A stretch of 64,000 nt of DNA from an uncultured Chitinophagaceae bacterium (GCA_964613385.1 CAZTGZ010000007.1:30941-94940), one strand, 5' to 3'. Positions 6,090 through 37,469 are shown, counted from the first letter of the stretch. The notes: generated from the letters alone by a model not told the origin. Program-made: numbers and translations.

Positions 6090-8609
6090 TTACTCCTGAT
6101 CTTTTTCCTTGGCGGCTTTCTTTGGCTTCGAATTCTTGAACTTCAGCTCATTCGTTTTTTTGTCCAAATCCACGGACATGGTATCTCCCTCATTGAGCTG
6201 AGATTTGAGAATTTCTTCGGCCAGCGGGTCTTCCAAATATTTCTGAATGGCTCTGTTTAACGGCCGCGCGCCAAAATCACTGTCGAATCCTTTTTCAGCC
6301 AGATAGGCCTTCGCAGCTTCACTGATTTGAATATGATATCCAACAGATTCTATGCGATTAATCAACTTCTGAACCGAAAGATTCAAAATCTTGGCGATGT
6401 CTTCTTTGCTCAACGAATTGAAAACGATCACGTCATCTATCCTGTTTAAAAACTCCGGAGAAAAGAATTTCTTCAAGGCGTTTTCAATCACATTTTTTGA
6501 AACAGCATCTGTGGTATTCAGCTTGGTGGTTGTATTGAATCCCATACCGGTTCCAAAATCCTTGAGCTGGCGGCTTCCGATATTGCTGGTCATGATGATA
6601 ATGGTATTCCGGAAATCAACCCGACGTCCCAAACTGTCTGTAATAAATCCCTCGTCAAGAATCTGAAGCATGATATTGAACACATCCGGATGCGCTTTTT
6701 CAATCTCGTCGAACAATATAACCGCATAAGGCTTTCTCCTTACTTTTTCCGTCAACAAACCGCCTTCTTCATACCCTACATATCCCGGAGGTGCGCCTAC
6801 CAAACGACTCACGCTGAATTTCTCCATATATTCACTCATATCGATTCGAATGAGCGTGTCTCTGGAATCAAACAAATATTCAGCGAGGCTCTTGGCCATT
6901 TCGGTTTTTCCCACACCGGTCGGGCCCAGAAAAATAAAAGAACCAATCGGTCTGTTGGGGTCTTTTAATCCCGCCCTGGTGCGTTGTATGGCCCGGGTGA
7001 GTTTCTCCACTGCTGCATCTTGTCCGATTACATGTCCTTTGAGTTCATCCGACATACTGAGGAGTTTTTGTCCTTCACTTTGAGCGATTCTCTTTACTGG
7101 AACACCGGTAATCATCGCCACAACTTCAGCAACATCTTCTTCGGTAACCTTGTATCTTTCGTTTCTTGTTTCTTCTTCCCAGCGTTGCTTCGCAATATCT
7201 AACTGTTCGAGCAGCGTTTTTTCCTTGTCTCTTAGTTTTGCCGCTTCTTCATATTTCTGGCTACGAACCACACGGTTCTTTTCTTCTTTAATTTCCTCAA
7301 TTTTCTCTTCGAGTTCGAGGATTTCACGGGGAACATGAATATTCGATAAGTGCACCCGCGCTCCGGCCTCATCCATTACATCGATGGCTTTATCAGGTAA
7401 ATGGCGGTCTGTGATATACCTCACGCTCATTTTTACGGCTGCGTCTAAAGCCTGATCAGTATAAGTTACACCATGGTGGTCTTCATATTTATCTTTGATG
7501 TTGCGCAATATCTGGCTGGTTTCATCCGGACTGGCGGGTTCAACCATAACAGGTTGAAATCTCCTTTCTAACGCGCCATCTTTCTCAATATATTGACGGT
7601 ATTCATCTAAGGTGGTTGCGCCTATGCACTGTATTTCTCCTCTGGAAAGTGCGGGTTTGAACATATTGGATGCATCCAGAGAACCGGAAGCTCCCCCGGC
7701 TCCAACAATGGTATGGATCTCGTCTATGAACAAAATCACATCTCTTGATTTTTCGAGTTCGTTCATCACCGCTTTCATCCGCTCCTCAAACTGTCCCCTG
7801 TATTTGGTTCCGGCAACAAGGGAAGCTAAATCAAGGGTAACAACTCTTTTATCATATAAAACCCTGCTCACTTTTCTTTGAACAATGCGCAATGCCAATC
7901 CTTCAGCAATGGCAGTCTTGCCAACACCCGGTTCTCCAATTAATACCGGATTGTTCTTTTTACGGCGACTCAAAATTTGAGAAACACGCTCTATTTCTTT
8001 TTCTCTCCCAATAATGGGATCGAGTTTGTCATCTTCTGCCAATTTTGTCAGGTCTCTGCCAAAATTATCGAGCACAGGAGTTTTCGACTTGCCTCCTTTG
8101 CGCTGGTCGCCGGATTTTTTCTCTTCCTTGTAGAAGTCTTCGGGAGAGTCAGTGGACATTTCAGACTTAATTTCCTGTGGACCATTTTCCATGCTGGCTT
8201 TAAAAACTTCGTAGTCTATGCCATATTGTCGGAGTATTTGAGAGGCAATATTGTCTTCTTCGCGCAAAATGCTCAACAATAAATGCTCGGTGCCTATCAC
8301 TTCACTTTTGAAAAGTTTGGCCTCTAAGTACGTGATTTTCAGCGCTTTTTCTGCTTGTTTGGTCAATGGAATATTGCCCAGATTCGTGCTTCTGCTGGCT
8401 GTATCCCGAATAGAATCTTCGATTGATTTTTTCAAGCGCAGCATATCCAATCCCATTTGTTTGAGGTTCAGCAGTGCTTTGCCTTCTCCTTCGCGGATAA
8501 TTCCCAATAATAAATGCTCTGTTCCGATATATCCATGTCCCAGTCGTATGGCCTCTTCACGGCTATACTGAATAACTTCTTTTACCCTGGGTGAAAATTT
8601 TGCTTCCAT
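6090..8609 (-). CDS. clpC: ATP-dependent Clp protease ATP-binding subunit ClpC
   Basis: Two Clp-N repeats (IGTEHLLL), Walker A GEPGVGKT and [11 protein letters not shown] domain ([11 protein letters not shown]), FGARPLNR. Confidence 0.95.
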
Positions 8610-10509: not shown

Positions 10510-12684
10510 TTATCTGAAGTGGAAAATAACGCTTAAGCCATAATAAGCATATCCGTCATAATCTGCTGAGGATGAGCGCTGACCTTTTAAATTCGTTGGG
10601 TTTGCCACTTTCGCGGCAGATTCACCCAAATCGGGGTTAGCAGCAATTAAAGCCTCTGAATCCGGGTAAAATCCGGTACTCAAATCATCCAAATAATCTG
10701 TGAACAGTTTGGTATAGGTATAAGAAAAGGCTATGGAAGTGGTTTTGCTCAGCTCTTTTCTGAGTTTTATTCCCAAAGGAATTCCAACAGAAAATTTTGA
10801 GTATCTGTTATCCGCACCATTCAAGGTCTGACCTTCCGTTCCAATGGAGCGCAAATCGTAATAAGTGCCATCATATCGGCCCATCGGTTTAAAATAATAT
10901 CCTTGAAAACCGATGAACCCTGAAGGAATCAGGTACTTTGGACCGGCAATCTTAAACAGATCGTATTCCATCAGCAAGCCAAAATCAACAACAGTGGTGC
11001 GCGTATTTAATTTTCGTTTGAAACCTGTTCCCCTCGATTTACCGATGGTGCTGGCCACGTCGTCATCTCCAACCAGAATCAGATAATTAGAACGCAATTC
11101 CAATTTCCATCTGTCTTTAAAATGATATCCACCCCGAACACCCATGGCAGGTCTGGCATTGGCCGGATATACTCTCAGACCATCTGCTGCCAAATCACCG
11201 AAGTAAATGGATGAACCGCTGAACAACTCGAACTCATAATAGGGTTTGAACTTGAAATAATTCGTATCTACCGGCAGGTTGGTGTTCTGTAAGTTTTTGA
11301 AAACATTGGTGTCATTGGTTTCAAAATCCTTGGCCGTGAATTTTGTTGGAATCTCATCCAAATCTCTGAATTTGAAGAAGATTTCGCGATTTTCATTCAG
11401 GAATATTCTCTTCCCGATGGTTACCGAAGGTATTTCAAAAAGTTTGGGGTCATATAATCCGTCAACAACAAAATAGCCATTCGGTAGTTTTTTCTGAACT
11501 TTGTCCAATAAGCTTATGGTCAGTGTCTTATCGCCATTGCTTAGGGTGCTTTCATGTTCCAGATGCTTAATGTACATCGTGTCATTGATGAGAAAATGAT
11601 AAGCCACCTTAAAATCTTTACCCGCACTTAGAGGTTGGTTGGAGTGGAAGGTAAAATCTCTGATTCCTTCACCCCATTGTTTGAATGGTTCATCTTCACC
11701 GATAGGATCTCCATTCACATAAATCTTGTAAATATGACCGTTTAATTCTCCATTTGGCAACTCCATTAATTCGTTAAAATATACGAATGGCGCCCTTTGA
11801 TTGGCAGAAATCTGATCAAACATTTTGGATAATTCCTCCGGTGACTTTTCGCCGAAATAGTTGGTAGACAGATTTAAGGATTCCGCGCTTCCAATAGTGG
11901 TGATGTTCACCGGATAAAACTCCACGGTGTCTCTGAAAATCATGCTGCTAAAATTATAGCAGATACTGTTTCCCTGGATGTTCGGAGCATTGGCAGCCGG
12001 AGCATCGTGGTAATTGATAAAAAGAGGAGAGGAGAACAAGCCGTTGGTTTCACGCCCGGTGTATTCGTTCCGGGTTACTACATTGTTCACGATATTGAAC
12101 TTTATGTAGTCACTGGCGATGTTGGCAAATAATATACCTCCGGAATTATTGGAGAATGTATTTCCAATCAGGGAGACTTCAATTTTTTTCGTTGCCTGGA
12201 TTTGGTCAATGTCCTGAAATTCAATTGAAATTTCGTTCTTTTTCAAATCTTTGAACAAACAGTTCTGTATAGAAATATTATCGCGATACCAGTTTTTCTG
12301 AAAATGTACAGGCTTTTTCAATTGTTTGAATTTAACGTAATTCAACTGTGTAGTTCCCTCATTGAATTCTCTGAAAACCAAACCGTTGCCCGGATTTTTG
12401 TCGTCAAGACTGGTGATAAAAATGAAATTCTTAGGCGCTCCATTCATCACAATATTACCACCGGCAATAATGCTTACATCTGGTCCTAACAGGAAGTTTG
12501 TGCCTGGATTTACGATCAGCTTCGCATCTTTTTTAATGTATACATTCTTCTTAACCACATAGTTGCCCGGTTCCAACACTAAGTCTTCTTCAATAACCGA
12601 AGGAAGTTCAAGGGTTGTTTGTGCCTGCAGGTAATGCGAAAAGGCAAAAAGAATGAGCCATATAGCAAGTATTTTACGCATCAT
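10510..12684 (-). CDS. Exported protein: N-terminal right-handed beta-helix, central Ig-like region, C-terminal DUF6089-like outer-membrane beta-barrel
   Basis: Signal peptide. beta-helix repeats IQNCLFKD / IGNTFSNN / VNNVVTRN / IQGNSICYN. Barrel motifs FSGSSIYFGDL and YTYTKLFTDYLDDLS. C-terminus GLSVIFHFR. Confidence 0.65.
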   Translation of the reverse strand: MMRKILAIWLILFAFSHYLQAQTTLELPSVIEEDLVLEPGNYVVKKNVYIKKDAKLIVNPGTNFLLGPDVSIIAGGNIVMNGAPKNFIFITSLDDKNPGNGLVFREFNEGTTQLNYVKFKQLKKPVHFQKNWYRDNISIQNCLFKDLKKNEISIEFQDIDQIQATKKIEVSLIGNTFSNNSGGILFANIASDYIKFNIVNNVVTRNEYTGRETNGLFSSPLFINYHDAPAANAPNIQGNSICYNFSSMIFRDTVEFYPVNITTIGSAESLNLSTNYFGEKSPEELSKMFDQISANQRAPFVYFNELMELPNGELNGHIYKIYVNGDPIGEDEPFKQWGEGIRDFTFHSNQPLSAGKDFKVAYHFLINDTMYIKHLEHESTLSNGDKTLTISLLDKVQKKLPNGYFVVDGLYDPKLFEIPSVTIGKRIFLNENREIFFKFRDLDEIPTKFTAKDFETNDTNVFKNLQNTNLPVDTNYFKFKPYYEFELFSGSSIYFGDLAADGLRVYPANARPAMGVRGGYHFKDRWKLELRSNYLILVGDDDVASTIGKSRGTGFKRKLNTRTTVVDFGLLMEYDLFKIAGPKYLIPSGFIGFQGYYFKPMGRYDGTYYDLRSIGTEGQTLNGADNRYSKFSVGIPLGIKLRKELSKTTSIAFSYTYTKLFTDYLDDLSTGFYPDSEALIAANPDLGESAAKVANPTNLKGQRSSSADYDGYAYYGLSVIFHFR

Positions 12685-14330
12685 TTGAACTCGAGATTAT
12701 AAGGGTTAAGAATGATACGATTACCCAAATTCGATTTGGCCACAATGTCGGTAATCATCAACTTGTCGCCAGCATTTGCTTTCGTTAAAAGATCCAGTAA
12801 ATATGGATTAAACGCACTGCCCGAGTTAACAAAAGGTTTGGTAATGGCTGTGTGCTTATTATAAATCATGGTTACGGTGAACTCTTGAATAAAATAGGTT
12901 TCGTCAACCAGATATTCATCCGTTTTAACCACCATTGACTTCATATTTCTGGCAGCCTGAATATTTACTTTACTGCCGTTTTCAAACCCGTTTACCTGTG
13001 CAATTGGCTGTGTTAAAGCGCGTACTGCAAACATTTGTTCCGCCACTTTTACGATTCCGTACGGCATGCGTGCAAAAATGGAAACCAGTACGATGCCAGT
13101 TTCGTTTACGCGTGCATAAAACTTGTCGCCTTTTCTGAATATTTCACCTTTAGAAATGCTGGCCACCAATTTGTCTTCCGTTCCGAATTCACTTGTTTTT
13201 ATGTTCAAAGGATTGTCAATTCCCGCATAAATAGTTGACAATTTGGTGTTCTGTATGACCGGTTCTACGTCAATTACCCGAATAGATTTGCTCACCTTTT
13301 TTACACCATCACTGAAACTAACGGTGTATCTTCCTTTTGATACAGGCAGATAAATAAATGGACCCGGTTTTGACATCGAAAAGTTGCGATTATCCTGAGG
13401 GCCATTCACCAAAATGGTCACTCTTTTGGTGATGGAAGTATCAAAATACACCTCAAATTTGAATGGGTGGCCTTCCGGATATATCGTGTCTGAAGCAGAT
13501 TGTACATAAAGCAGGGAAGTGGACTTCTTTGGTTCATCCTTGCCATTGATATATTCTTTGTTCTGAATGTTCTCAAAGAATTCACGAATGGTATTTGCAT
13601 TTCCGATTTGTTCAACCTGATTCTCTTTAAAGTTTTGCATGACCTTTAACGGAGTAGGTTGGTTGCGCTCTTCAACTAGATTTCTGATGATTTGCTCGTA
13701 AGCATAAATCCTCAATCTCTCCATGCCGGCCTTGAAGTGATTCAGGTTCATGACAGAAATATTCAAAGGGGCACCTGCAAAATAGAATGCGCGGGCATTT
13801 ACTCTGGAGCCATCGGATTTTTGAATAATTTTATGTACCGGAAACATCTCGTTTAATGGTTCAAGATGCTCAAAACCAATGATTTCTGTAATAAATTCTT
13901 TGTAATTGCGAACTAAATGCATCACACTGTCGGCCATGCCATTGCTGATGAGCAACTCCTGAGTTGTTTCGGTTTTCTTTCCTTGATTAAAATATCCAAA
14001 ACTGTCCACACCATCTTTGGAAATTAAATCCAATTTCAGTCGCTCCACAAATTGATTCATCTCCTGAGAGAAATCCTCTATATCTAAGAATTTCTGTTTT
14101 GTTTTTTCGTAGAGTTCAGGATCGTCTTTGAGTAGATTGAGAAAATACAAGGCGGTTTCGGTATTTTCTTTTCCTGCATCTTTAGACAGCATATCCAAAC
14201 TGCGACTGCTGTGCTGTACCGAATCCAGGAAGTCGGACGGTATATAAGAGAAAAGAAATGCCATCAGAATCAGGTAGATCAGGTTGATCGCCTTTTGTCT
14301 GAGTTTCTTTCCCGGATTATCGTATGCCAT
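12681..14330 (-). CDS. gldM: GldM/PorM-like motor subunit (paralogue)
   Basis: N-terminal TM helix LRQKAINLIYLILMAFL matches GldM RQKMINLMY. Helical periplasmic domain, and a GldM C-terminal-type domain ending NAGDKLMITDIVAK. Confidence 0.8.
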   Translation of the reverse strand: MAYDNPGKKLRQKAINLIYLILMAFLFSYIPSDFLDSVQHSSRSLDMLSKDAGKENTETALYFLNLLKDDPELYEKTKQKFLDIEDFSQEMNQFVERLKLDLISKDGVDSFGYFNQGKKTETTQELLISNGMADSVMHLVRNYKEFITEIIGFEHLEPLNEMFPVHKIIQKSDGSRVNARAFYFAGAPLNISVMNLNHFKAGMERLRIYAYEQIIRNLVEERNQPTPLKVMQNFKENQVEQIGNANTIREFFENIQNKEYINGKDEPKKSTSLLYVQSASDTIYPEGHPFKFEVYFDTSITKRVTILVNGPQDNRNFSMSKPGPFIYLPVSKGRYTVSFSDGVKKVSKSIRVIDVEPVIQNTKLSTIYAGIDNPLNIKTSEFGTEDKLVASISKGEIFRKGDKFYARVNETGIVLVSIFARMPYGIVKVAEQMFAVRALTQPIAQVNGFENGSKVNIQAARNMKSMVVKTDEYLVDETYFIQEFTVTMIYNKHTAITKPFVNSGSAFNPYLLDLLTKANAGDKLMITDIVAKSNLGNRIILNPYNLEFK

Positions 14331-14362
14331 GACTTTGCGTATTTTTCTTTGATGTTAGTAGT

Positions 14363-14887
14363 TTAGAATTTGTAGTTTTCAAATTCTTTAAGTCTGTCGT
14401 TGGCACTGGCTATCTTGATTTTCAGACTGTTGATCTGCTGCTGATATTCGAGCGTGCTTTGCGACATTATCTCATAATTTTTCTCCAATACTTCTACCGT
14501 CTTATTCAATTTGCTGGTGGCTTCGTTTAAATGCTGTAAATTGTTGTCTAATGACACGATGGAGTTGAGGATTTTTTCCAATTGCTGCTCTCGTGTAACT
14601 GTTGCAACCGATTCAACACTCTCTATGGATTCGAGTTCTTCAGTTTCTTCAGAAGCCGCCTGGTCTTTTAGCTGAGGGAAAATTCTATCCCACTTGTACT
14701 CCTGACGGTAAGACTTCCACTCGAAAGCAGATATCAAAAAGATAAATGCTTCCCCGATCAAACCGATCATAAACAGATAGTCGGCAAACTTCCAGCCCAT
14801 GAATTTAAAAAGGGCAGCAATCAGGATAATGGCCGCGCCAACACCGTAGAAGAAATTTATCAAGTCGAACTTTTTCTGGGTTTCCAT
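14363..14887 (-). CDS. gldL: GldL/PorL-like motor subunit (paralogue)
   Basis: INFFYGVGAAIILIAALFKF and GLIGEAFIFLISAFE TM helices plus a coiled-coil tail. Start is probably ATG 14887 (alternative 14905) rather than GTG 14935. Confidence 0.85.
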   Translation of the reverse strand: METQKKFDLINFFYGVGAAIILIAALFKFMGWKFADYLFMIGLIGEAFIFLISAFEWKSYRQEYKWDRIFPQLKDQAASEETEELESIESVESVATVTREQQLEKILNSIVSLDNNLQHLNEATSKLNKTVEVLEKNYEIMSQSTLEYQQQINSLKIKIASANDRLKEFENYKF

Positions 14888-15011
14888 ATTGAAATCGTTT
14901 TTCATCAACTGCCAATATACGTGCCATGCGAGCACTTAAGCGCATATTTGAAAAATCGCTTATTCCACAGAAAGTCGTAAAATGCAGAAAATCAGATAGA
15001 TACAATGTTAA

Positions 15012-15043
15012 CAAAGGTGGTATGATGAGGATACCACCCTTTG
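15012..15043 (-). terminator. Hairpin downstream of pruA, probable intrinsic terminator
   Basis: CAAAGGTGGTAT (15012-15023) / ATACCACCCTTTG (15031-15043) inverted repeat with one bulge and a 7-nt loop, about 50 nt after the pruA stop. Confidence 0.55.
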
Positions 15044-15095
15044 CTAAAAATGAAAATATTTCCCAAAAGTGGAAAAAATTGCTAAAAAAGAAAGT

Positions 15096-16724
15096 CTAAC
15101 TTTCCAGGAATGGGTATTTGTAATCTCCGGGTGGGTTGAAATTTTCTTTAATTGTGCGCTGACTTACCCAACGCATTAAATTAGCTTTAGCCCCGGCCTT
15201 GTCGTTGGTGCCAGATGCCCTCGCACCGCCAAATGGCTGTTGACCAACCACCGCACCCGTAGGTTTGTCATTGATATAAAAATTACCCGCACTGTTTTTT
15301 AGTTTTTCAACTGCAGTGGCTATGGCATATCTGTCTGTGGCCATCACACTGCCGGTAAGTGCGTATGGAGAAGTTTGATCTACCAGTTCTAAGGTTGCTT
15401 CCCATGCATCTTGCGGATACACATAAATGGTTAATACAGGTCCGAAAATTTCTTCGCACATGGTAGTATAACGGGGACTTTTTGCCAGAATAACCGTCGG
15501 TTCGATAAAATATCCGGTTGATTTATCAAAGTTTCCACCGGCAATGATCTCAGCATCCTGGTCTTGGCGAGCTGAGGCGATATAAGAACTAATCTTGTCA
15601 AATGCCTTTTCATCGATAACGGCATTGATGAAATTTCCGAAATCTTCCGGACTGCCCATTTTTATTTCTGATAATTGGCTGAGCATAATTTCACGGGTTT
15701 CTTCCCAAAGATTGTCGGGAATATAGGCCCGGGAAGCAGCAGAACATTTTTGACCCTGGAATTCGAAGGCTCCTCGTGTAAGTGCAGTGGCCAAAGTCTT
15801 TGGATCTGCAGTTTTGTGAGCGATCACGAAATCTTTTCCTCCGGTTTCTCCAACAATACGCGGATAACTTTTATACAGGTGAATGTTGTTTCCGATGGTT
15901 TTCCATAACTGCTGAAATACACCTGTGGATCCGGTGAAATGCAATCCGGCAAAATCAGGATGATTAAAAATAACTTCTCCGGCAGTTTTGCCCTCAACAT
16001 ATACCAAATTGATCACGCCATCTGGTAATCCAGCGGCTTGAAAAAGTTCCATAATAACCGCAGCACTGTAAATCTGGCTTTCGGCAGGTTTCCAAACGAC
16101 CGTATTGCCCATCAGTGCAGCCGAAGCCGGCAAATTGGCCGCGATGCTTGTAAAATTGAATGGGGTCAGGGCAAAAACAAATCCCTCTAAGGGTCTGTAT
16201 TCCATACGGTTCCAGGTTCCTGCTGAATTTTCAGGCGGTTGCTCCCGATATATCTCCGTCATATAAGACACATTGAACCTGAAAAAATCTATTAATTCGC
16301 AAGCAGCATCTATTTCTGCCTGATAGGCATTCTTGGATTGTGCCAACATGGTGGCTGCATTTAATTTCGCCCGGAAAGGACCTGCAAGTAAATCAGCAGC
16401 TTTTAAGAAAATAGCCGCTCTCTCTTCCCAGGGTAATGCTACCCATTTATCCTTCGCATTCAGGGCTGCCGAAATAGCTTGTTGAACGTGTGCGGCATTA
16501 CCATAATTATAGATTCCGAGATTAAAAGCGCGATCATGAGGCGGATGCATGGTTCTTTTATCGTCAGTATAAACTTTGTCCGAACCAATGAACATCGGGA
16601 TTTCAATTTTTTCTGATTTGTATTTCTGTATCTGTTCAACTAAACTTTTGCGCTCCTCACTGTGCTTGGAATAGGAGAGAACAGGTTCGTTCTTAGGTAC
16701 GGGAACATTAAAAAATCCTTTCAT
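15096..16724 (-). CDS. pruA: L-glutamate gamma-semialdehyde (P5C) dehydrogenase
   Basis: NEPVLSY, EIDAACELIDFFRFN, ETGGKD, GQKCSA catalytic Cys, EEIFGP, GASGTNDK-type motif. Confidence 0.95.
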   Translation of the reverse strand: MKGFFNVPVPKNEPVLSYSKHSEERKSLVEQIQKYKSEKIEIPMFIGSDKVYTDDKRTMHPPHDRAFNLGIYNYGNAAHVQQAISAALNAKDKWVALPWEERAAIFLKAADLLAGPFRAKLNAATMLAQSKNAYQAEIDAACELIDFFRFNVSYMTEIYREQPPENSAGTWNRMEYRPLEGFVFALTPFNFTSIAANLPASAALMGNTVVWKPAESQIYSAAVIMELFQAAGLPDGVINLVYVEGKTAGEVIFNHPDFAGLHFTGSTGVFQQLWKTIGNNIHLYKSYPRIVGETGGKDFVIAHKTADPKTLATALTRGAFEFQGQKCSAASRAYIPDNLWEETREIMLSQLSEIKMGSPEDFGNFINAVIDEKAFDKISSYIASARQDQDAEIIAGGNFDKSTGYFIEPTVILAKSPRYTTMCEEIFGPVLTIYVYPQDAWEATLELVDQTSPYALTGSVMATDRYAIATAVEKLKNSAGNFYINDKPTGAVVGQQPFGGARASGTNDKAGAKANLMRWVSQRTIKENFNPPGDYKYPFLES

Positions 16725-18477: not shown

Positions 18478-19209
18478 TCAATTCTGTTCTTGGGCATATT
18501 TATATTTCAAATATCTGCTTAACGCGCTGAAATGACTGATATACAGGCCGTTAATACCCTCCAGTATTCCGAGTTGCCAAAAGTACCTCTTCAAAAACAT
18601 GGTGATATATGAAAGTTGTGGACGCCCCCACCAGTTGCCAACCACCTTACCGGCGGATAGTCTCGCGTATTTTTCGATGGTTTCGCGATGTTGTTTCAAG
18701 GTATCCAGTGTATAGTGGAGAATATCACCTTTTAATGGAATAATTTGCGTGTCTGGCGGTAGAATGAGCGATTCATGGACTTCTCCTTTCCAGTAGGCAT
18801 TTGAGGGAAACAATCTGATTTTCTTATCGGGGTACCAGTTGCAAAACCGAACAGGTTTGCCTCTATAGAAATTCAGTCGATTAAACTGATATGCGCCACT
18901 TAAATGATCAATATTTTTGATAGAGGATAGTGCTTCCGGTGATAGTCTCTCATCTGCATCCAGTGATAATACGTAGTCATAAGCGGCAAACGCATGAGCT
19001 TCATTTTTTGTATCCGCATAACCTTTCCACTCTATTTGATGTACGATAGCACCTGCGGACAGGGCAATTTCAACAGTATCATCCATACTGCCGGAGTCAA
19101 ATACGAGAATTTCATCGCAAATATCCCGCATACTTTTCAGGCATGCCGAAATCTTCAGGGCTTCATTTTTAGCTATAACTATACCGCTGATGCCCTTCTT
19201 TTTAATCAT
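18478..19209 (-). CDS. Glycosyltransferase family 2 (WaaE/KdtX-like)
   Basis: [37 protein letters not shown]. Overlaps the hutU stop by 8 nt. Confidence 0.85.
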
Positions 19210-20893
19210 TAGCGCCGATCAGCCTTTCTTTTAAGTCCAACTTATGTTTGCGCGCAGTATCCAGAGCAATATCGTAACCTGCATCTGCATGCCGGATTAC
19301 CCCCATAGCCGGATCGTTGTGCAGCACTCTTTTCAATCTTTGTTCAGCCTCGGGTGTTCCATCTGCCACGATTACCATACCGGCATGTATGCTGTAACCA
19401 ATGCCAACTCCACCTCCGTGATGCAGCGATACCCAACTGGCTCCTCCGGCGGTATTGATCAGGGCATTGAGGATAGGCCAGTCTGCGATAGCATCTGATC
19501 CATCTTTCATCGCTTCAGTTTCCCGATTTGGCGATGCGACGGAACCTGTATCCAAATGGTCACGTCCAATGACGATGGGAGCTTTTACCTTGCCATCACG
19601 TACCAACTGATTAAACAGCAGTCCGGCTTTTTCTCTTTCTCCTTGTCCCAGCCAGCATATACGGGCAGGCAATCCCTGAAATGAGATTCGCTCTTTGGCC
19701 ATAGTCAACCAGCGTTTTAATCCTTCATCTTCAGGAAATAATCCCAGGAGGGCCTCATCGGTGGTGTAAATATCCTCCGGATCTCCGCTCAGCGCTACCC
19801 ATCTGAAAGGTCCACGACCCAAACAAAACTGAGGTCGAATAAATGCAGGAACGAATCCCGGATAATCAAATGCGTTTTTAACCCCATGTTCCAGCGCGCG
19901 ACCTCTCAGGTTATTGCCATAGTCAAAGGTTATGGAGCCTTTAGATTGAAATTCAATCATCAGCTTCACATGTTTGGCCATGGTTTCGTAACTTCTTTTC
20001 ACATATTCTTCGGGGTCTGTAGCCCGCATGCGGTCAGCGGCTTCAACATCCAATCCTTCAGGAAAATAACCAACCAAAGGATCATGTGCAGAAGTCTGAT
20101 CAGTAAGCAAATTAGGCACTATACCTCTTTCTTTCAGTCTCTCGAGCAAATCCACGGCATTCCCTGGCCAACCGATAGACAGAGCTATACCTGCCTCACA
20201 GGCTTTTAATGACTTGTCGATGGCTTCATCCAGATTTCTGACCATTAGGTCGAGGTATCGGGTTTCCAGTCTTTTTCTGATTCTCCATTCTTCCATCTCT
20301 GCGGCCAGACATACGCCTTCGTTCATGGTAACCGCCAAAGGCTGAGCTCCGCCCATTCCGCCCAAACCAGCGGTAACGCTTAGTGTCCCCTTTAAAGTAC
20401 CGCCAAATTTCTGACGTGCTGCTTCGGCAAACGTTTCATAAGTACCTTGTACGATGCCCTGTGAACCAATATAAATCCAGGATCCGGCGGTCATTTGACC
20501 GTACATGATCAATCCTTTGGCCTCAAGTTCCCTAAAGTAATCCAAATTGGCCCAATGTGGCACCAAATGCGAGTTTGCTATAAGAACCCGGGGTGCATCC
20601 TTGTGGCTCGGCAATATCCCCACAGGTTTCCCTGATTGTACCAATAGAGTTTCATCCTCGTTTAATTCTTTTAAAGCCTTGATAATCAAATGGTAACTTT
20701 CCCAGTTACGGGCAGCTTTACCGGTACCTCCATAAACAACCAGATTTTCCGGCTTCTCTGCCACCTCCGGATCTAAATTGTTCATGAGCATTCTCATCGC
20801 GGCTTCCTGTACCCAACCTTTGCAACTCAGAGCATTTCCCCTTGGAGCGCGTACGATTTCCGGATTCGAATGATGAAATATGTCACTTGTCAT
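19202..20893 (-). CDS. hutU: Urocanate hydratase (short, ~560 aa type)
   Basis: [49 protein letters not shown]. Start set at ATG 20893. Confidence 0.96.
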
Positions 20894-20898
20894 ATCCG

Positions 20899-20906
20899 CA
20901 AAATTA
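20899..20906 (-). promoter_or_regulatory. -7 promoter box TAATTTTG for hutU
   Basis: Exact TAnnTTTG match, 5 nt upstream of the hutU ATG. Confidence 0.5.
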
Positions 20907-20947
20907 ATATTTGCCCGTGCAGGATGCGCTATCATTTTAGATTTTAG

Positions 20948-21299: not shown

Positions 21300-23558
21300 A
21301 TGAAAAAGTTTGTTTGGCTAGTCTTGGGCTGGCTGTTTCCATTTGTTGGTGTTTCTCAAAATATAACCATTTCGGGTGCCATTATTGACAGTGCATCCGG
21401 TTATCCATTAGAGCAGGCATCTATTATGATTTATCCTGACAAGTTGTTTGCGCTTAGTCAGGGGAATGGTACGTGGTCTATTCCCAACATCAAGCCGGGA
21501 CCGAAGGAATTAAAAGTTACACATATAGGGTGTTTGTCTGTTTATGTCAGATTTTATGCGACTTCCGATACCAATTTAATCATTAGACTTAAACACCATG
21601 TTCACGTATTTGAGCCACATATTGTGCGCGGCAACCGACATGAAAACGAACAACATACCGATCATGAAAAGACCTTACAAGGCATTTCATTGTATTCCGT
21701 TCAACATTTGAGTTTAGCAGAGCAACTCACCAGTATAAATGGGGTTTATGCTTTAAAATCAGGACAAGGGATTTCTAAACCCGTGATCCGGGGTTTGCAA
21801 GGGAATCGAGTGGTGACCATTGATCACGGACAGCGCCTTGAAAGTCAACAGTGGGGCAGCGAACATGCGCCTGAAATAGATGGCAGGTCAGCAAATTCTA
21901 TCACGGTTCTGAAAGGGGCATCCACCCTGAGATACGGGAGCGATGCCTTAGGTGGAATTGTAATTCTGGACCCGGGCCGAATTTCAGATTCATTTCATTT
22001 GAATCTGATGAGCAGCGGTCATAGCAATGGCTGGGGAGGTAAAATTCATGGAATCATTGAATTTCCGCTTTTGAAGAGAGGAAAGGTAAGAATTTACTCC
22101 GGTTTGCAGGGTTCCGGAGATCAACATACACCCGGATATTCACTTACAAACACGGCATTTAAAGCAGGCAGCGCCGGAATTATACACCAATATAATCATA
22201 AGGATAGAGCAGTTCAAAGAAATGTGCGGTTTTATTTCAGCAAACCGGGAATTCTGAAGGCATCTCATATAGGAAATATCACAGATTTGCAAAAAGCCAT
22301 TCAAGGGAATGAACCTTTGATTCAGGAAGATTTCAGCTATGACATTTCTAACCCTTTTCAAAAAATTACCCATTTGTCTGCGGTAGAAAGACAGGAATAC
22401 CGGAAAGGGCTGTGGAAATTGATCGGCCAGTATGGGTTTCAATGGAATAAACGATTGGAATTTGACAGTCGCCGGGGAGCATCGGCCGATATACCCCAAT
22501 TGAACTTTAGTTTATTCACACATCAACTGGATGTAAACGTTCATTGGAATAAGGGAATCCACGGAATAGAAACCGGTGTTCAGGGTTATTGGCAGGGAAA
22601 TATTCAAAAAGGATTCCTGCTCATCCCAAATTATAGGAAAAGGGGCCTGGGGGTTTATAATTTGTATCGACTTACGGCCGAAAAACATTTGGTAGAATGC
22701 GGAATTCGTGGTGATTGGATTGATCAAACGGCGTATTTCTATGCTTCTTCCGATGTTATATTAAGGCATCGGAATTTTTCAGGAATCGCAGCTAATCTGA
22801 GTTGGCGATATCAATTGGGTCACGACTGGTTATGGATGGTTCAGGCCTCCAGATTATGGAGAGCGCCTTCCGTGAATGAATTGTACAGCAATGGACTTCA
22901 CCATGGGGCTGCGGCTTTGGAGTATGGGGATCCGACGTTAGACAAGGAAATTGCTCATAGCCTTGCCATGATTCTGGTCTATAATCACAACAAATTCAAT
23001 TTTGAAATAGAACCGTTTATAAGAAGAATTGAGAACTTCATGAGTTTGCAACCATCACTACCCACGGCATTGACCATCCGGGGTGCATTTCCGGTTTTCA
23101 ATTTCGAAGCGAGGAATGTTTTATTCAGAGGAATCGATGCTCAATGGGAGTGGGCCATGTTTGATCATGTATTTGTAAAGGGGCAATACAGTTTTATGTG
23201 GGTGCGCGATACAGCAGGATTATTTCTCAACGGAATGCCGGCCCCTTCGTTCGGTCATGAATTGAGGTATAAGTTAGAAAAATGGAAAGGATTTTACGGA
23301 ATACAGGCCATGCTCGAATATCGCTATGTATTGAAGCAACCCTTCGCGGATGGTTCCAATGACTATGCCGGTCCACCTCCTTCATATGGTGTCATGAGAA
23401 GCAGCCTCGCATTTCGCAACACAGCGGTCAAGGGATTATGGATGATAACGTTTGAAAATGTCCTTAATACCCGATATCGGGATTATTTGAGCCGCCTGAG
23501 ATATTATGTAGATGAACCTGCGTTTAATTTTATTTTTTCTTATATATATACTAATTAA
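21300..23558 (+). CDS. TonB-dependent receptor, probably divalent-metal (Zn/Ni-type)
   Basis: Signal peptide, carboxypeptidase-regulatory-like N-domain, plug KPVIRGL...SQQWGSEHAPEID...VLKG, barrel motif ELYSNGLHHGAA, His-rich linker, aromatic C-terminus. Confidence 0.88.
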   Translation: MKKFVWLVLGWLFPFVGVSQNITISGAIIDSASGYPLEQASIMIYPDKLFALSQGNGTWSIPNIKPGPKELKVTHIGCLSVYVRFYATSDTNLIIRLKHHVHVFEPHIVRGNRHENEQHTDHEKTLQGISLYSVQHLSLAEQLTSINGVYALKSGQGISKPVIRGLQGNRVVTIDHGQRLESQQWGSEHAPEIDGRSANSITVLKGASTLRYGSDALGGIVILDPGRISDSFHLNLMSSGHSNGWGGKIHGIIEFPLLKRGKVRIYSGLQGSGDQHTPGYSLTNTAFKAGSAGIIHQYNHKDRAVQRNVRFYFSKPGILKASHIGNITDLQKAIQGNEPLIQEDFSYDISNPFQKITHLSAVERQEYRKGLWKLIGQYGFQWNKRLEFDSRRGASADIPQLNFSLFTHQLDVNVHWNKGIHGIETGVQGYWQGNIQKGFLLIPNYRKRGLGVYNLYRLTAEKHLVECGIRGDWIDQTAYFYASSDVILRHRNFSGIAANLSWRYQLGHDWLWMVQASRLWRAPSVNELYSNGLHHGAAALEYGDPTLDKEIAHSLAMILVYNHNKFNFEIEPFIRRIENFMSLQPSLPTALTIRGAFPVFNFEARNVLFRGIDAQWEWAMFDHVFVKGQYSFMWVRDTAGLFLNGMPAPSFGHELRYKLEKWKGFYGIQAMLEYRYVLKQPFADGSNDYAGPPPSYGVMRSSLAFRNTAVKGLWMITFENVLNTRYRDYLSRLRYYVDEPAFNFIFSYIYTN

Positions 23559-24791: not shown

Positions 24792-26267
24792 TCAGTTCAG
24801 AGTTTCATGCGTCACGAAGTATTCGGCGTCTATCATTCTCTCGTGCATAAAAGCATCGTCGGATGTTACCGGAACCTTCTTCCGGAAGCGCGACAACAAT
24901 TCTTCCAGAATAGGGGAGGTTTTTGAAGGTTCCCGAAAAGAAAGTGCCTGGGATGCTATCATCAATTCAATGGCGAGTATTTTTCTCGTATTCCGGGTGA
25001 TTTCCAGACATTTATTTACCGACGTAGCTCCCATACTGACATGATCTTCCTGACCGTTGCTACTCACAATGCTGTCAATACTTGCAGGTGTGCACAAAAC
25101 TTTATTTCTGTTCACGATAGAGGCAGCGGTATATTGTGGAATCATATATCCGGAATGCAAACCTGGTTTTGGAGTCAGAAATGCCGGCAGATCTCTTTGA
25201 CCACTGATCAATTGATAAATTCTACGTTCAGAAATATGCCCTAGCTCATGAATGGCCAGAGATAGAAAATCTGCATTTAATGCCAACGTCTGTCCATGGA
25301 AATTGCCTCCGGAAAGTATCAGGTCTTCATCCGGGAATATATTTGGATTGTCTGTGACACCATTTATTTCTGTGAGCAGCACCTCTTCAACATGCGATAT
25401 TACATCTCTGCTTGATCCGTGAACCTGAGGCACACAACGGAATGAATATGGATCCTGCACATGTTTCTTGGGTCGGTCTATTAACTCGCTTCCTTCTAAT
25501 AATCTGCGAATGTTCTGTGCAACGGTTTGTTGTCCTTTATGGGGTCTGATTTGATGGATGGAAGGGTGAAAAGGCGAGATTTTACCGTCGAATGCATCCA
25601 GACTCAGGGCTGCAAGTGCATCAGCCCAATCTGCAAGCCTCTGACACTCAAGGATGGTAAATGCCAATACCGACGCCATGTATTGGGTTCCATTGATTAA
25701 AGCAAGACCTTCTTTGGCTTGAAGCTCTAATGGAGATAAAGGAATTACCGTGGATGGCAATGTTTTACCGTGGTGATGGATTTCTCCGAGTCCGATTAAT
25801 GGAAGGCTCAAATGAGCCAGTGGACTCAGGTCTCCTGAAGCGCCTAAAGACCCCAGTTCATAAACTACGGGCAAATACTCATGATTATATAGATATATGA
25901 GCCTGTCGATCAGTTGTGGGCTTACGCCGCTATTACCTTTTGAAAGACCGTGCACCTTTAAGGCAAGCATTAATCTTATAACCGCAGGTTCTACCGGATT
26001 TCCCATTCCACAGGCATGTGAAACAAGAAGATTATACTGTAAATCACTTAAATCAGCCTTATCGATCACCGTATTGTAAAGTGAACCGAATCCGGTATTT
26101 ATTCCATAAACAGGTTCATGGTTAACGGATAGATGATTTTGTAGATACGCATAGCTCTTGCGCACAAGGTCTTGGTTGTCAGCATGTAACGAAATCTCAT
26201 TGCCTTTTTGAGCCAATACGAGCAAATCATGCAAATTGAGTTCTTTTCCTAATGAAATTTGAGTCAT
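24792..26267 (-). CDS. hutH: Histidine ammonia-lyase
   Basis: VYGINTGFG, GSLGASGDL (MIO-forming ASG), KEGLALINGT, QDPYSFRCVPQVHG, GQEDHVSMG. Confidence 0.96.
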   Translation of the reverse strand: MTQISLGKELNLHDLLVLAQKGNEISLHADNQDLVRKSYAYLQNHLSVNHEPVYGINTGFGSLYNTVIDKADLSDLQYNLLVSHACGMGNPVEPAVIRLMLALKVHGLSKGNSGVSPQLIDRLIYLYNHEYLPVVYELGSLGASGDLSPLAHLSLPLIGLGEIHHHGKTLPSTVIPLSPLELQAKEGLALINGTQYMASVLAFTILECQRLADWADALAALSLDAFDGKISPFHPSIHQIRPHKGQQTVAQNIRRLLEGSELIDRPKKHVQDPYSFRCVPQVHGSSRDVISHVEEVLLTEINGVTDNPNIFPDEDLILSGGNFHGQTLALNADFLSLAIHELGHISERRIYQLISGQRDLPAFLTPKPGLHSGYMIPQYTAASIVNRNKVLCTPASIDSIVSSNGQEDHVSMGATSVNKCLEITRNTRKILAIELMIASQALSFREPSKTSPILEELLSRFRKKVPVTSDDAFMHERMIDAEYFVTHETLN

Positions 26268-34738: not shown

Positions 34739-34851
34739 TGACAAATTGGCAATAGTTAACAACCGTCTGATGTCAATTTGTCTTGAAAACGTCTTGAAAA
34801 TCAGATTTCTAATGTCAAAATAGCCGTGTTATATTTTGGAATTCCGTTTGA
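34739..34851. promoter_or_regulatory. Repeated TGACAAA/TGTCA motifs and a GG-N10-GA element upstream of clpB
   Basis: TGACAAATTGGCA 34739, TGTCAATTTGTCT 34771, TGTCAAAAT 34813; direct repeat GTCTTGAAAA at 34780 and 34791; TGGAATTCCGTTTGA 34837-34851. Confidence 0.4.
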
Positions 34852-34868
34852 GTGGAAGGGGTAGCATT

Positions 34869-37469
34869 ATGAACTTAAATCAATTTACCATAAAATCTCA
34901 GGAGGCTATTCAAAAAGCCCAGGAATTAGCTGTTTCCGCCTCAAATGCATCCATAGAAACCGGACATTTATTGAAAGGCTTGCTTCTGACAGACGAAAAC
35001 GTGCTGACGTATGCCCTTAAAAAATGCAATGTGCAACCCGAGCGGCTGAATCAAGCCCTGGATGCAGTTTTGCAAAGTTACCCCAGACAAAGCGGAGGAT
35101 CGGTGTATTTGTCGTCACAAGCTAATCAGGTATTGGTCAAATCCCAGAGTTATCTGAAGTCATTTGGGGATGAGTTTGTGACCGTGGAGCACATCATGTT
35201 GGCCTTGCTTGAACAGGGAGATCAGATTTCTCAATTGTTGAAAGATTCCGGCGCAATCTTCAAGGATTTGAAGGAATCTTTTTTGTCTTTGAGAAGTGGG
35301 GGAAAGGCAAACTCGCAAAGCGCAGAGGCTCAATACAATGCCTTGAATAAGTATGCGAGAAATCTGAATGACCTGGCGAGACAGGGAAAGCTGGATCCGG
35401 TGATTGGAAGGGATGAGGAAATCAGGCGTGTACTTCAGATATTATCGAGAAGGACCAAAAATAATCCAATCCTCATAGGCGAACCCGGAGTCGGTAAAAC
35501 AGCCATTGCTGAGGGATTGGCACATAGAATTGTGAGTGGAGATGTTCCCGAAAATCTGAAAACCAAGCAGGTGTTTTCATTGGATATGGGGAGTCTGGTA
35601 GCCGGTGCGAAATACAAGGGTGAATTTGAAGAGCGATTAAAAGCAGTTGTCAAAGAGGTGATTGATGCTTCGGGCGAATTGGTTCTTTTTATTGATGAAA
35701 TACATACGTTGGTTGGTGCCGGTGGTAGTGGAGAAGGAGCTATGGATGCTGCCAACATTCTTAAACCGGCTTTGGCAAGGGGAGAGCTTAGAGCCATCGG
35801 GGCCACAACATTAGCCGAGTATCAGAAATATATAGAAAAGGATAAAGCCCTGGAGCGAAGGTTTCAGACTGTTTACGTGGAAGAACCTGATACCCAGGAT
35901 GCCATCTCTATTTTAAGGGGACTAAAAGAGCGATATGAGGTTCATCATAAAGTGAGAATTAAAGATGAAGCCATCATAGCGGCTGTAGAATTATCACAGC
36001 GTTATATTTCGGATCGGTTTTTACCGGACAAAGCCATAGATCTGGTGGATGAAGCCGCCGCGAAGTTGAGATTGGAAATTGATTCCGTGCCCGAAGAACT
36101 CGACGAATTACAACGCAAAATTATGCAATTGGAGATCGAACGTGAGGCGATAAAGCGGGAAAAAGACGACAAAAAACTCCAAAGTCTCAATGAACAGATA
36201 TCAAATTTGGGGGATGAAAGAAATGCCCTGAAATCAAGGTGGCAGGAAGAAAAGCAGATCGTGGATGCCATTCAGACCGCCAAAAAGGATATAGAAAATC
36301 TAAGATTCGAAGCCGATCAGGCTGAAAGGGCCGGTGATTATGGGAAGGTTGCTGAAATCAGGTATGGCAAAATGAAGGATGCTGAGGCGAATTTGCAACA
36401 GTTTCAAAATGAGTTGTTAAGCAGGCAAAATGGTCATTCACTGGTAAAAGAAGAGGTTGATGCCGAGGATATTGCTGAAATAGTGAGCCGATGGACCGGT
36501 GTTCCGGTGCAGAGTATGTTGCAGAGTGAACGGGAAAAATTGTTGCATTTAGAGGATGAATTGCACAAAAGAGTGATAGGTCAACAGGAAGCCATTGAAG
36601 CCATTTCAGATGCCATCAGAAGGAGCAGGGCTGGATTATCTGACCCTAAAAAGCCGATAGGGTCATTTATATTTTTGGGAACAACAGGTGTGGGTAAAAC
36701 GGAGTTGGCCAAGGCATTGGCAGAGTATCTGTTCGATCAGGAAAATGCCATGGTTAGGATAGATATGAGCGAATATCAGGAGAAACATACGGTTTCCAGA
36801 TTGATTGGAGCTCCTCCGGGATATGTTGGATATGATGAAGGCGGACAATTAACGGAAGCGGTACGACGCCGGCCGTATAGTGTGATCTTGTTGGATGAAA
36901 TTGAAAAGGCTCATCCGGATGTGTTTAACATATTGCTGCAGGTGTTGGATGATGGCAGGTTGACCGATAACAAGGGAAGAACCGCTAATTTCAAGAATAC
37001 CATTGTTATAATGACCAGCAATATTGGATCTCACTTAATTCAGGATCGATTGGAAGATTTGAGTGAAGATAGCAGATCAGAGGTAATTGCAAAAACCAAA
37101 GTGGAGGTTTTCGACTTACTAAAGAAGAGCATACGTCCCGAGTTTTTGAATCGGATTGACGAAGTAATTATGTTCACCCCATTGACTCGTGAGGAGATCA
37201 GAGATATAGTTTTGTTACAATTCGGTGGAATTCAGAAAATGTTAAAAGAGATGCAGGTAGACCTGAGCGCTACAGAAGAAGCCCTGGATTGGCTGGGAGA
37301 ATTGGGATATGATCCTCAATTTGGCGCGAGACCCTTGAAGCGGGTAATTCAAAAGGAGATTTTGAACAAATTGAGCAAGGATTTATTGGCTGGAGTGGTT
37401 GTAAAGGAAAAGCCCATATTGTTGAAACTTGACGGGGCGAGAAATTTTGTTTTTGAGCCTAAAGACTAA
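34869..37469 (+). CDS. clpB: Chaperone ClpB
   Basis: [13 protein letters not shown] start, two AAA modules, long coiled-coil middle domain with [19 protein letters not shown]. Confidence 0.97.

Follow-up and report, generated by a model that had tools for sequence, protein, structure and literature searches.

GldL/GldM-like motor genes joined to a PorG-family outer-membrane barrel gene in Bacteroidota: a probable track-free offshoot from the type IX secretion system

What does a GldL/GldM-type motor act on if the genes for the ring that it usually drives are not at its side? This question is raised by positions 10510 to 14887 of a 64,000-nucleotide stretch from an uncultured Chitinophagaceae bacterium (GCA_964613385.1, CAZTGZ010000007.1:30941-94940; the whole stretch is called the window here), in which genes for a GldL-like and a GldM-like protein are followed by a gene, designated X, for an exported protein with an outer-membrane (OM) barrel. 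In the canonical chain of type IX secretion (secretion system: T9SS) and of gliding, the GldLM (PorLM) motor drives a track of GldK/GldN(/GldJ), which is joined to PorG by a disulfide via the Cys tail of the latter (PMC12635249, PMC12365241); the porK-N operon is described in PMC5790014. The trio found here is most likely a paralogous, accessory module derived from T9SS/gliding parts, and we give a probability of about 60% to the reading that its GldL/M-like motor acts directly on the PorG-type barrel of X, bypassing the GldK/GldN track. The transfer of force from GldLM/PorLM to OM proteins and the role of PorG are open questions in T9SS/gliding research.

The trio consists of the following genes:

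14363-14887, minus strand: GldL-like gene, 174 amino acids (aa), start ATG at 14887
12681-14330, minus strand: GldM-like gene, 549 aa
10510-12684, minus strand: X gene, 724-aa exported protein

An earlier reading of the DNA, made from the sequence only, had described three co-directional genes of which the last two share an ATGA overlap. Indeed, all three open reading frames (ORFs) are present on the minus strand, and the ATG of X overlaps the stop codon of the gldM-like gene by 4 nucleotides. For the gldL-like gene, the ATG at 14887 was preferred over an upstream GTG at 14935 (homologs have 166 to 174 aa). The sequence-only reading had also seen no gldK upstream and no gldN downstream, and this held: hidden Markov models (HMMs) for GldK, made with six canonical sequences, and for GldN, made with three, gave no match across the 64-kb window. 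In a cluster test of the gldL-like gene, gldM-like was found to adjoin it, and a gldK-gldL-gldM-gldN arrangement was not found.

The trio is not a product of chance, since about 85 independent loci have these three genes, arranged alike. When 8 to 10 kb were read around each match to the module, the order GldL-like, GldM-like, X on a single strand was found in all six X subfamilies sampled, so the synteny of the three genes is kept across many Bacteroidota and X, which had been assigned to the pair from one locus, is its conserved neighbor in each of these six. Stop and start codons usually overlap or nearly do so: in 38 of 68 cases the M and X genes share 1 or 4 nucleotides, and the others are separated by no more than 22 nucleotides, with one exception; the gaps between the L and M genes measure 2 to 39 nucleotides. 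In clade A, to which the window belongs, the GldM-like family was detected in 18 GTDB species, all of them uncultured metagenome-assembled genomes (MAGs) named 'Bacteroidia', 'Bacteroidetes' or 'Flavobacteriales bacterium', and in several metagenome contigs. There, GldL-like, GldM-like and X follow each other in nearly every locus that extends far enough, the exceptions being the variants described below, and the usual upstream genes are GT2-murB-rluD-pruA. Clade B (Chitinophagaceae), which was reached via an X subfamily with 25% identity, comprises some 60 loci in Sediminibacterium and other members of the family, including the cultured Sediminibacterium goheungense DSM 28323; genes for the GldL-like and GldM-like proteins precede X wherever the upstream DNA suffices. 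The same arrangement was seen in four further X subfamilies with 22 to 30% identity to the X of the window, one of them on a 3.79-Mb contig. The 3.07-Mb sequence OX044357.1 bears the module, too. Strong purifying selection on the trio was seen in the single close Chitinophagaceae group in which synonymous divergence (dS) could be estimated: the ratios of nonsynonymous to synonymous substitutions (dN/dS) lie between 0.01 and 0.08 for each of the genes, though only roughly so, since dS is above 1.

Several genomes contain more than one copy of the module. A 2.98-Mb contig of a Sediminibacterium MAG (CBDDIX010000004.1; locus L112, 3-10340) has a tandem in the order first GldM-like gene, type-B cargo, L, second M, X, and giant protein, and two separate loci each are present in the MAGs CANFXV01 (L130 and L152) and CANGDH01 (L165 and L169).

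Is the pair equipped to work as a motor? The GldL-like protein of the window matched PF22827 (GldL_N; 1e-20) and reached 84.9 bits on TIGR03513, thus passing the equivalog cutoff of 68.3 bits; other GldL-like proteins of the module, those of S. goheungense (62 bits) and of L124 (28 bits), remained under it. Two transmembrane helices are followed by a short coiled cytoplasmic tail. A phmmer search against solved GldL chains gave 1e-15 for 7sau_C and 2e-13 for 6ys8_G, and by alignment to these two chains, Y13, K27 and E49 of Flavobacterium johnsoniae GldL correspond to Y14, K28 and E46 of the window protein; E46 is located in the second transmembrane helix and encoded by the GAA codon at 14752-14750. 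The Tyr of NFFYG and the Glu of GEAF had been taken as retained motor residues, and the structural alignment confirms that the motor residues are kept. E49 of GldL has been proposed as the partner of R9 of GldM, and the residues are reported to be functionally important (bioRxiv 10.1101/2022.01.28.478170). In many Chitinophagaceae the GldL-like protein has 460 to 550 aa compared to about 170 to 220 aa, with a long cytoplasmic C-terminal extension for which no Pfam match was found (for example, L124 5015-6607, L127 2218-3876 and L157 1528-2916).

The GldM-like protein is more diverged. It matched Pfam GldM_1st, GldM_3rd and GldM_4th, barely over the gathering scores, and the 180-bit cutoff of TIGR03517 was reached neither by the window protein (99.4 bits) nor by its homolog from S. 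goheungense (14.9 bits). The protein has an N-terminal transmembrane helix, a helical domain D1, a disordered linker (aa 225-270) and three beta domains (aa 275-353, 365-437 and 443-548). A profile of the family found PorM (7cmg) in the PDB at 1e-23. The AlphaFold2 (AF2) model, with a predicted local distance difference test score (pLDDT) of 75, shows the transmembrane helix, D1 and three beta domains, and Foldseek with this model retrieved PorM 7cmg (1.5e-20) and GldM 6ey4 (2e-18), each over some 545 columns. The N-terminal part gave target TM-scores of 0.72 to 0.76 with the GldLM cryo-electron microscopy complexes 7sau, 7sax and 7saz. Thus, as modeled, the GldM-like protein of the window has the full GldM fold. 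Alignment to the solved GldLM structures placed R9 and Y17 of F. johnsoniae GldM at R11 and Y19, in keeping with the Arg of RQK and the Tyr of NLIY that had been picked out from the sequence, and both residues are invariant in all alignments of both clades.

An N-terminal signal peptide could be read from the X sequence; after it come a beta-helix, an immunoglobulin (Ig)-like sandwich, a disordered linker and an eight-stranded barrel:

11890-12615, minus strand: right-handed parallel beta-helix of X, aa ~24-265 (AF2 secondary structure and Beta_helix/NosD giants)
11413-11733, minus strand: Ig-like beta-sandwich of X, aa ~318-424 (AF2 strands, pLDDT 75-89)
10513-11241, minus strand: eight-stranded OM beta-barrel of X, PorG/DUF6089 family, aa 482-724 (AF2, Foldseek, profile search)

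The AF2 model of X has an overall pLDDT of 65 and a predicted template modeling score (pTM) of 0.55, with a pLDDT of 80 to 91 over aa 30-140. Eight long strands were predicted at the C terminus (aa 482-723), and Foldseek with full-length X had the barrels of OmpA, Ail, NspA, OmpX and OmpW as top matches; only barrels were matched, and none of the matches was to the N-terminal domain. Giant proteins assigned by Pfam to Beta_helix/NosD contain 11 to 15 copies of the N-terminal module, which is therefore taken to be a right-handed beta-helix. A 44-sequence alignment revealed the family-wide beta-helix motif P125-x2-F128-x3-W132-x-R134. Giant proteins of 2,000 to 7,600 aa with 5 to 15 tandem beta-helix modules were encountered (P0052, P0063, P0080, P0113 and others).

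To which family does the barrel belong? X matched the PorG model NF052316 at 5.9e-13 with 49.1 bits, below the cutoff of 130 bits, and other X-like proteins had 42 to 106 bits. An exhaustive profile search with X yielded 4805 representatives at E values of 1e-3 or lower and 107 at 1e-30 or lower. Stand-alone proteins of about 275 aa matched the barrel region of X at 1e-27 to 1e-33; of six tested on NF052316, four were clearly above the cutoff and two at it (128.8 and 130.6 bits), and all six exceeded the gathering score of PF19573 (DUF6089). Since the X profile retrieves bona fide PorG proteins, the barrel of X is a PorG homolog. Moreover, the loop motifs L-R/Q-x-x-G-T-E/G-G-Q (GTEGQ) and F-T-D-Y-L-D-D-V are common to the barrel of X and PorG proteins. 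The sequence-only reading of X as a beta-helix/OM-barrel protein was therefore right about the architecture and missed the kinship of the barrel to a T9SS protein. The size of the family depends on how it is searched: a single-sequence search of GTDB genomes with X had zero matches, a word-indexed protein search found only 12 relatives and thus badly understated the family, and the N-terminal domains of the different subfamilies gave an alignment too divergent to serve as a query.

X ends at the last barrel strand and is missing the Cys-containing C-terminal tail of PorG; no conserved cysteine was found in alignments of 10 close homologs and of 59 family-wide representatives. The Cys of the PorG C-terminal extension forms an essential disulfide with PorK/GldK (Cys232-Cys356; PMC12365241, PMC12635249). 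The position of the N-terminal extension follows from a general property of the barrel. In eight-stranded barrels of the OmpA class both termini are periplasmic; by analogy, the beta-helix and Ig-like extension of X, about 460 aa, would be located in the periplasm. This placement counts against X being an autotransporter with a beta-helix passenger, a candidate that was rejected because the barrel is eight-stranded and of PorG type and lacks a pore-filling helix.

Is this a second motor or the only one in its genome? GldK and GldN were not matched by the HMMs in any of the some 85 module loci of 8 to 10 kb each. This null result is robust at least for GldK, since a search with just one GldK sequence finds GldK of other orders at 1e-64 to 1e-80. 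Also, phmmer and HMM scans of all fetched module loci did not reveal a canonical gldKLMN there. In neighbor-joining trees, whose canonical sequences were those of Flavobacteriaceae and of a high-GC lineage not related to them (L030), canonical GldL and GldM were monophyletic with respect to the module proteins (bootstrap values of 98 and 100, respectively), and each module clade was monophyletic as well; the pair is thus separate from the canonical proteins.

If, on the other hand, the pair were the sole GldL-GldM of the genome, it would be an ordinary, fast-evolving T9SS motor relocated from gldK/gldN, and X a lineage-specific long PorG. We consider this quite improbable. It would agree with the PorG-type barrel, with the GldL-like protein of the window being over its equivalog cutoff and with the presence of T9SS cargo: Por_Secre_tail proteins are encoded in clade A module genomes or contigs (L012, L014 and L019), so a T9SS exists in those genomes. 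A scan of genomes for the GldM motif QKMINLMYLV of the canonical set, with a DNA pattern that was too narrow since it covered AT-rich codons only, had five matches in unrelated Flavobacteriaceae and none in a module genome; within the scope of so narrow a pattern, this counts for a sole motor. But a sole T9SS motor is hard to reconcile with a GldM-like protein that scores so far below the 180-bit cutoff, with canonical proteins of distant lineages that cluster to the exclusion of the module proteins, or with the two or three copies of the module in some genomes. In the two orders in which the module occurs, gldKLMN operons are the rule. Furthermore, X is devoid of the Cys that PorG needs for binding to PorK/GldK, and in GenBank the S. 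goheungense proteins (TDO27031-TDO27033) are named 'GldL-related protein', 'GldM family protein' and 'DUF6089 family protein', which means that the annotation pipeline treats them as neither GldL, GldM nor PorG. In the papers on Sediminibacterium that were searched, gliding and some T9SS genes are mentioned, gldKLMN not explicitly. From the monophyly of the canonical proteins, the scores under the equivalog cutoffs, the multiple module copies, the T9SS cargo in several module-bearing genomes and the degraded module genes in separate lineages (whose T9SS status is not established), we infer that the module coexists with a canonical gldKLMN in one genome and would be a second motor.

What could this motor move? 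In S. goheungense and relatives, a gene for a giant PKD-repeat protein whose C-terminal domain (CTD) is of type B (CHU_C/TIGR04131) and a PorP/SprF gene are followed by L, M and X. In other Chitinophagaceae, X is followed by the gene for a 2,400- to 2,600-aa PKD protein. The largest Chitinophagaceae group has the order AraC-type regulator, L, M, X, ~150-aa lipoprotein, 165-aa type-A CTD protein (a small Por_Secre_tail protein) and ~2,300-aa repeat protein. In gliding, the GldK track drags adhesin carriers and PorG, and for PorG a role in expelling carrier-cargo complexes from the translocon has been suggested (PMC12635249). The context of the Chitinophagaceae operons resembles the SprB/SprF/PorG logic of gliding. 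The sequence-only reading had suggested a different OM partner for the motor. X is indeed a conserved neighbor of the pair. The PorG-family barrel and the cargo-bearing operons argue that the partner is probably a track-free offshoot of the T9SS and not a T9SS-unrelated machine.

As to the distribution of these arrangements, the giant PKD/type-B CTD and PorP/SprF genes upstream of the trio were seen in L161 (31-10211, NZ_SNWP01000011.1), the S. goheungense locus, where the type-B CTD protein has 1,639 aa, and also in L135 and L148. The extended operon is present in L124, L142, L153 and about 40 other loci, sometimes with a second AraC gene, and its ~2,300-aa protein bears DUF5907 repeats.

The reading that we prefer builds on homology, architecture, retained motor residues, the strict synteny of the trio and the purifying selection in one close Chitinophagaceae group, all of which are established, and would run as follows. 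The GldL-like and GldM-like proteins may form a proton-driven inner-membrane rotary motor of the 5:2 type. The arm of the GldM-like protein would span the periplasm, into which the extension of X would hang, and its distal domains would engage the beta-helix and Ig-like extension directly at a putative contact. Torque would then pass to the PorG-type OM barrel without a track and without a disulfide, in a 'direct drive'. The job of such a motor would be accessory to the T9SS or gliding, namely, to push or move certain complexes of carrier and cargo, or giant surface proteins; the presumed link to cargo comes from the Chitinophagaceae operons, with their CTD cargo of types A and B, their PorP/SprF and their giant repeat proteins. 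A more far-reaching variant would be that L, M and X make up a self-contained track-free trans-envelope machine, a private gliding or secretion engine in miniature that would drive or export a single giant surface protein of its own in parallel to the shared T9SS chain, which we can put forward only tentatively, as a possibility with the odds against it.

In addition to the narrow scan for canonical gldM, several observations weigh against a direct drive of X for T9SS cargo. The AF2 model of X is of moderate quality. In clade A, no cargo gene is consistently linked to the trio, and a home-made HMM detected no CTD protein in the window. Locus L025 has intact genes for the GldL-like and GldM-like proteins, but X is not adjacent. 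In at least 15 clade A loci the gene next after X encodes an AsmA-family protein of ~890 aa, a neighbor that points to a role in envelope biogenesis rather than secretion. Finally, insertion, truncation, fusion and frameshifts, described below, indicate that the module is dispensable in some lineages.

If the AsmA-like neighbor were decisive, the motor would power a process of envelope biogenesis or maintenance unrelated to T9SS cargo, for example together with an AsmA-like bridge, comparable to Tol-Pal or TamAB-type systems. The housekeeping and envelope genes around the clade A trios (murB, lptF/G, glycosyltransferases) are in line with this, and so is locus L195, where the gene after X encodes a DUF6089-like barrel with, fused to it, an OmpA peptidoglycan-binding domain. 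However, neither the window nor its closest GTDB relative has the AsmA-like gene, and it is likewise missing from several other loci and from the entire Chitinophagaceae clade, where the linked genes are instead those for T9SS cargo, PorP/SprF and giant surface proteins. An envelope function of this kind is therefore rather unlikely. In the closest metagenome relatives (62% identity), the ~890-aa AsmA gene is located between X and dnaB (L004 7564-10239 and L009 12254-14926); no AsmA-like homolog was found elsewhere in the 64 kb of the window, and the window and L012 either lost the gene or never had it. The L195 protein has 505 aa, is encoded right after X at 12421-13938 on the 3.79-Mb contig ctg7550_141x_c, and, with its DUF6089-like barrel and OmpA peptidoglycan-binding domain, could be an anchor of the machine.

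Degraded forms of the module raise the question of whether the trio is simply a decaying, functionless duplicate of T9SS genes. In L001 to L003, an element of the IS3 type stands in place of gldM-like and has shortened gldL-like, with X intact. In L035, the GldM-like protein is shortened to 337 aa, consisting of D1 and a short C-terminal piece, and X is lost. L010 and L011 have an X-AsmA fusion that arose by deletion, and L021, on a long-read chromosome, has frameshifts. All of this would be expected of decay. The window itself, however, has intact reading frames with all motor residues kept; the Arg and Tyr of the GldM-like protein do not vary in either clade, the order of the genes is the same in six deeply diverged X subfamilies, and the GldM-like protein is 96% identical among Chitinophagaceae species with saturated synonymous sites (dN/dS about 0.01). 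A functionless duplicate is thus extremely improbable. The joint loss of X and of the middle domains of the GldM-like protein in L035 favors a coupling of the two proteins, as a single anecdote.

Details of these variants are as follows. The IS3 variants (8133-9927 in L001 and L002, 182-532 in L003), which come from three ENA samples, have an element made up of HTH_Tnp_1 and rve; gldL-like is cut to 145 aa, and the AsmA-like gene is variably fragmented among the samples. L035 (11865-13387, JACJZU010000003.1) is from the MAG Flavobacteriales bacterium HK-STAS-BACT-72, was detected with PruA as synteny anchor and has a synteny like that of the window, GT2-murB-rluD-pruA ... rplS-valS. In L025 (11657-15346; UBA6491, DJML01000059.1), the place of X is taken by a gene on the opposite strand for a 1,229-aa protein of the TraB/PrgY/GumN family.

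How does the trio compare to known systems? With the canonical T9SS/gliding chain (Hennell James et al.; PMC12635249; PMC12365241) it shares the subunit types, the key residues, the four-domain fold of GldM, a PorG-family OM barrel, the restriction to Bacteroidota and, in Chitinophagaceae, adjacent genes for T9SS cargo and PorP/SprF. It differs from that chain in having neither gldK nor gldN at the locus (~85 cases) and no PorG Cys tail, in the N-terminal extension of about 460 aa on the barrel, in a GldL-like protein that is shorter (~170 aa) or, in some Chitinophagaceae, far longer (~500 aa), and in the GldM-like protein of Chitinophagaceae, which has one fewer beta domain. With PorG (NF052316, DUF6089), X has in common the eight-stranded barrel and the loop motifs, but it is about three times longer, reaches 49 of 130 bits, is without the C-terminal Cys extension and adjoins motor genes, whereas porG has been reported in a bamA/uppS/skp neighborhood (PMC12365241).

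In its presumed way of working, the module would be analogous to ExbB-ExbD-TonB and also to TolQRA-Pal: a 5:2 proton motor with a periplasm-spanning subunit that acts on the domain of an OM barrel without a ring. There is no sequence relationship, however, and while TonB pulls a plug in a 22-stranded barrel, the barrel of X has eight strands and the motor would contact X at a large beta-helix in the periplasm. The adhesin and carrier genes directly upstream of the S. goheungense trio are like SprB-SprF and other pairs of type-B cargo and PorP-like proteins (PMC9143113; PMC12635249), but in F. johnsoniae it is the shared GldK track that moves SprF, whereas the module encodes a private motor and a PorG-like protein; a gene context of this kind is absent from the clade of the window.

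No description of a GldLM-PorG-like module was found in the literature searched, which included structural and mechanistic papers on the T9SS from 2022 to 2025, and a literature search for paralogs returned GldN/GldO only, in keeping with the suggestion of the sequence-only reading that this is a possibly undescribed GldLM machine. What is new is the combination of T9SS-derived parts in a new architecture; the members were already known only as automated family annotations. In structures from 2025, PorG was not resolved on the PorKN ring. If a PorG-type barrel can be wired to the motor without the 3-MDa ring, this would be a far simpler system of three genes, and a cultured host that bears the module is available in S. 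goheungense DSM 28323 (GenBank TDO27031-TDO27033). The module is abundant in freshwater Chitinophagaceae. If the reading of a direct drive is true, GldLM, the third class of ion-driven rotary motor, would have diversified into several output devices, like MotAB, ExbBD, TolQR and ZorAB.

The surroundings of the trio in the window include two further features:

15096-16724, minus strand: gene for a PruA-type aldehyde dehydrogenase, upstream neighbor of the GldL-like gene
15008-15047, minus strand: stable hairpin after the pruA stop and ahead of the gldL-like start

With pruA, the trio makes up four successive minus-strand genes. RNA folding of the hairpin gave a free energy of -17.3 kcal/mol and a z score of -4.8, and none of 200 shuffled sequences was equally stable. 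It has no good U-tract, and a terminator scan of the window left it unflagged. Of the pruA gene and terminator hairpin named in the sequence-only reading, the gene and a stable hairpin are therefore there, and the hairpin probably separates the trio from pruA transcription, a terminator role that would have to do without the U-tract. Downstream, dnaB is convergent with X, and its stop codon (10509) abuts that of X (10510) with zero spacer.

Outside the trio, the window has ordinary gene content. Clp ATPases are encoded at 6090-8609 and 34836-37469. The genes hutU (19202-20935) and hutH (24792-26267) flank a TonB-dependent receptor gene (21300-23558) and two small ORFs. The translation-related genes trmD, rimM, rpsP and queA were identified by reading translations. 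A polysaccharide biosynthesis cluster of ~26 kb on the minus strand (37466-63958) encodes a sugar transferase, a DegT aminotransferase, a Wzy-like polymerase/ligase, several GT1, GT2 and GT4 enzymes, epimerases and an asparagine synthase-like amidotransferase.

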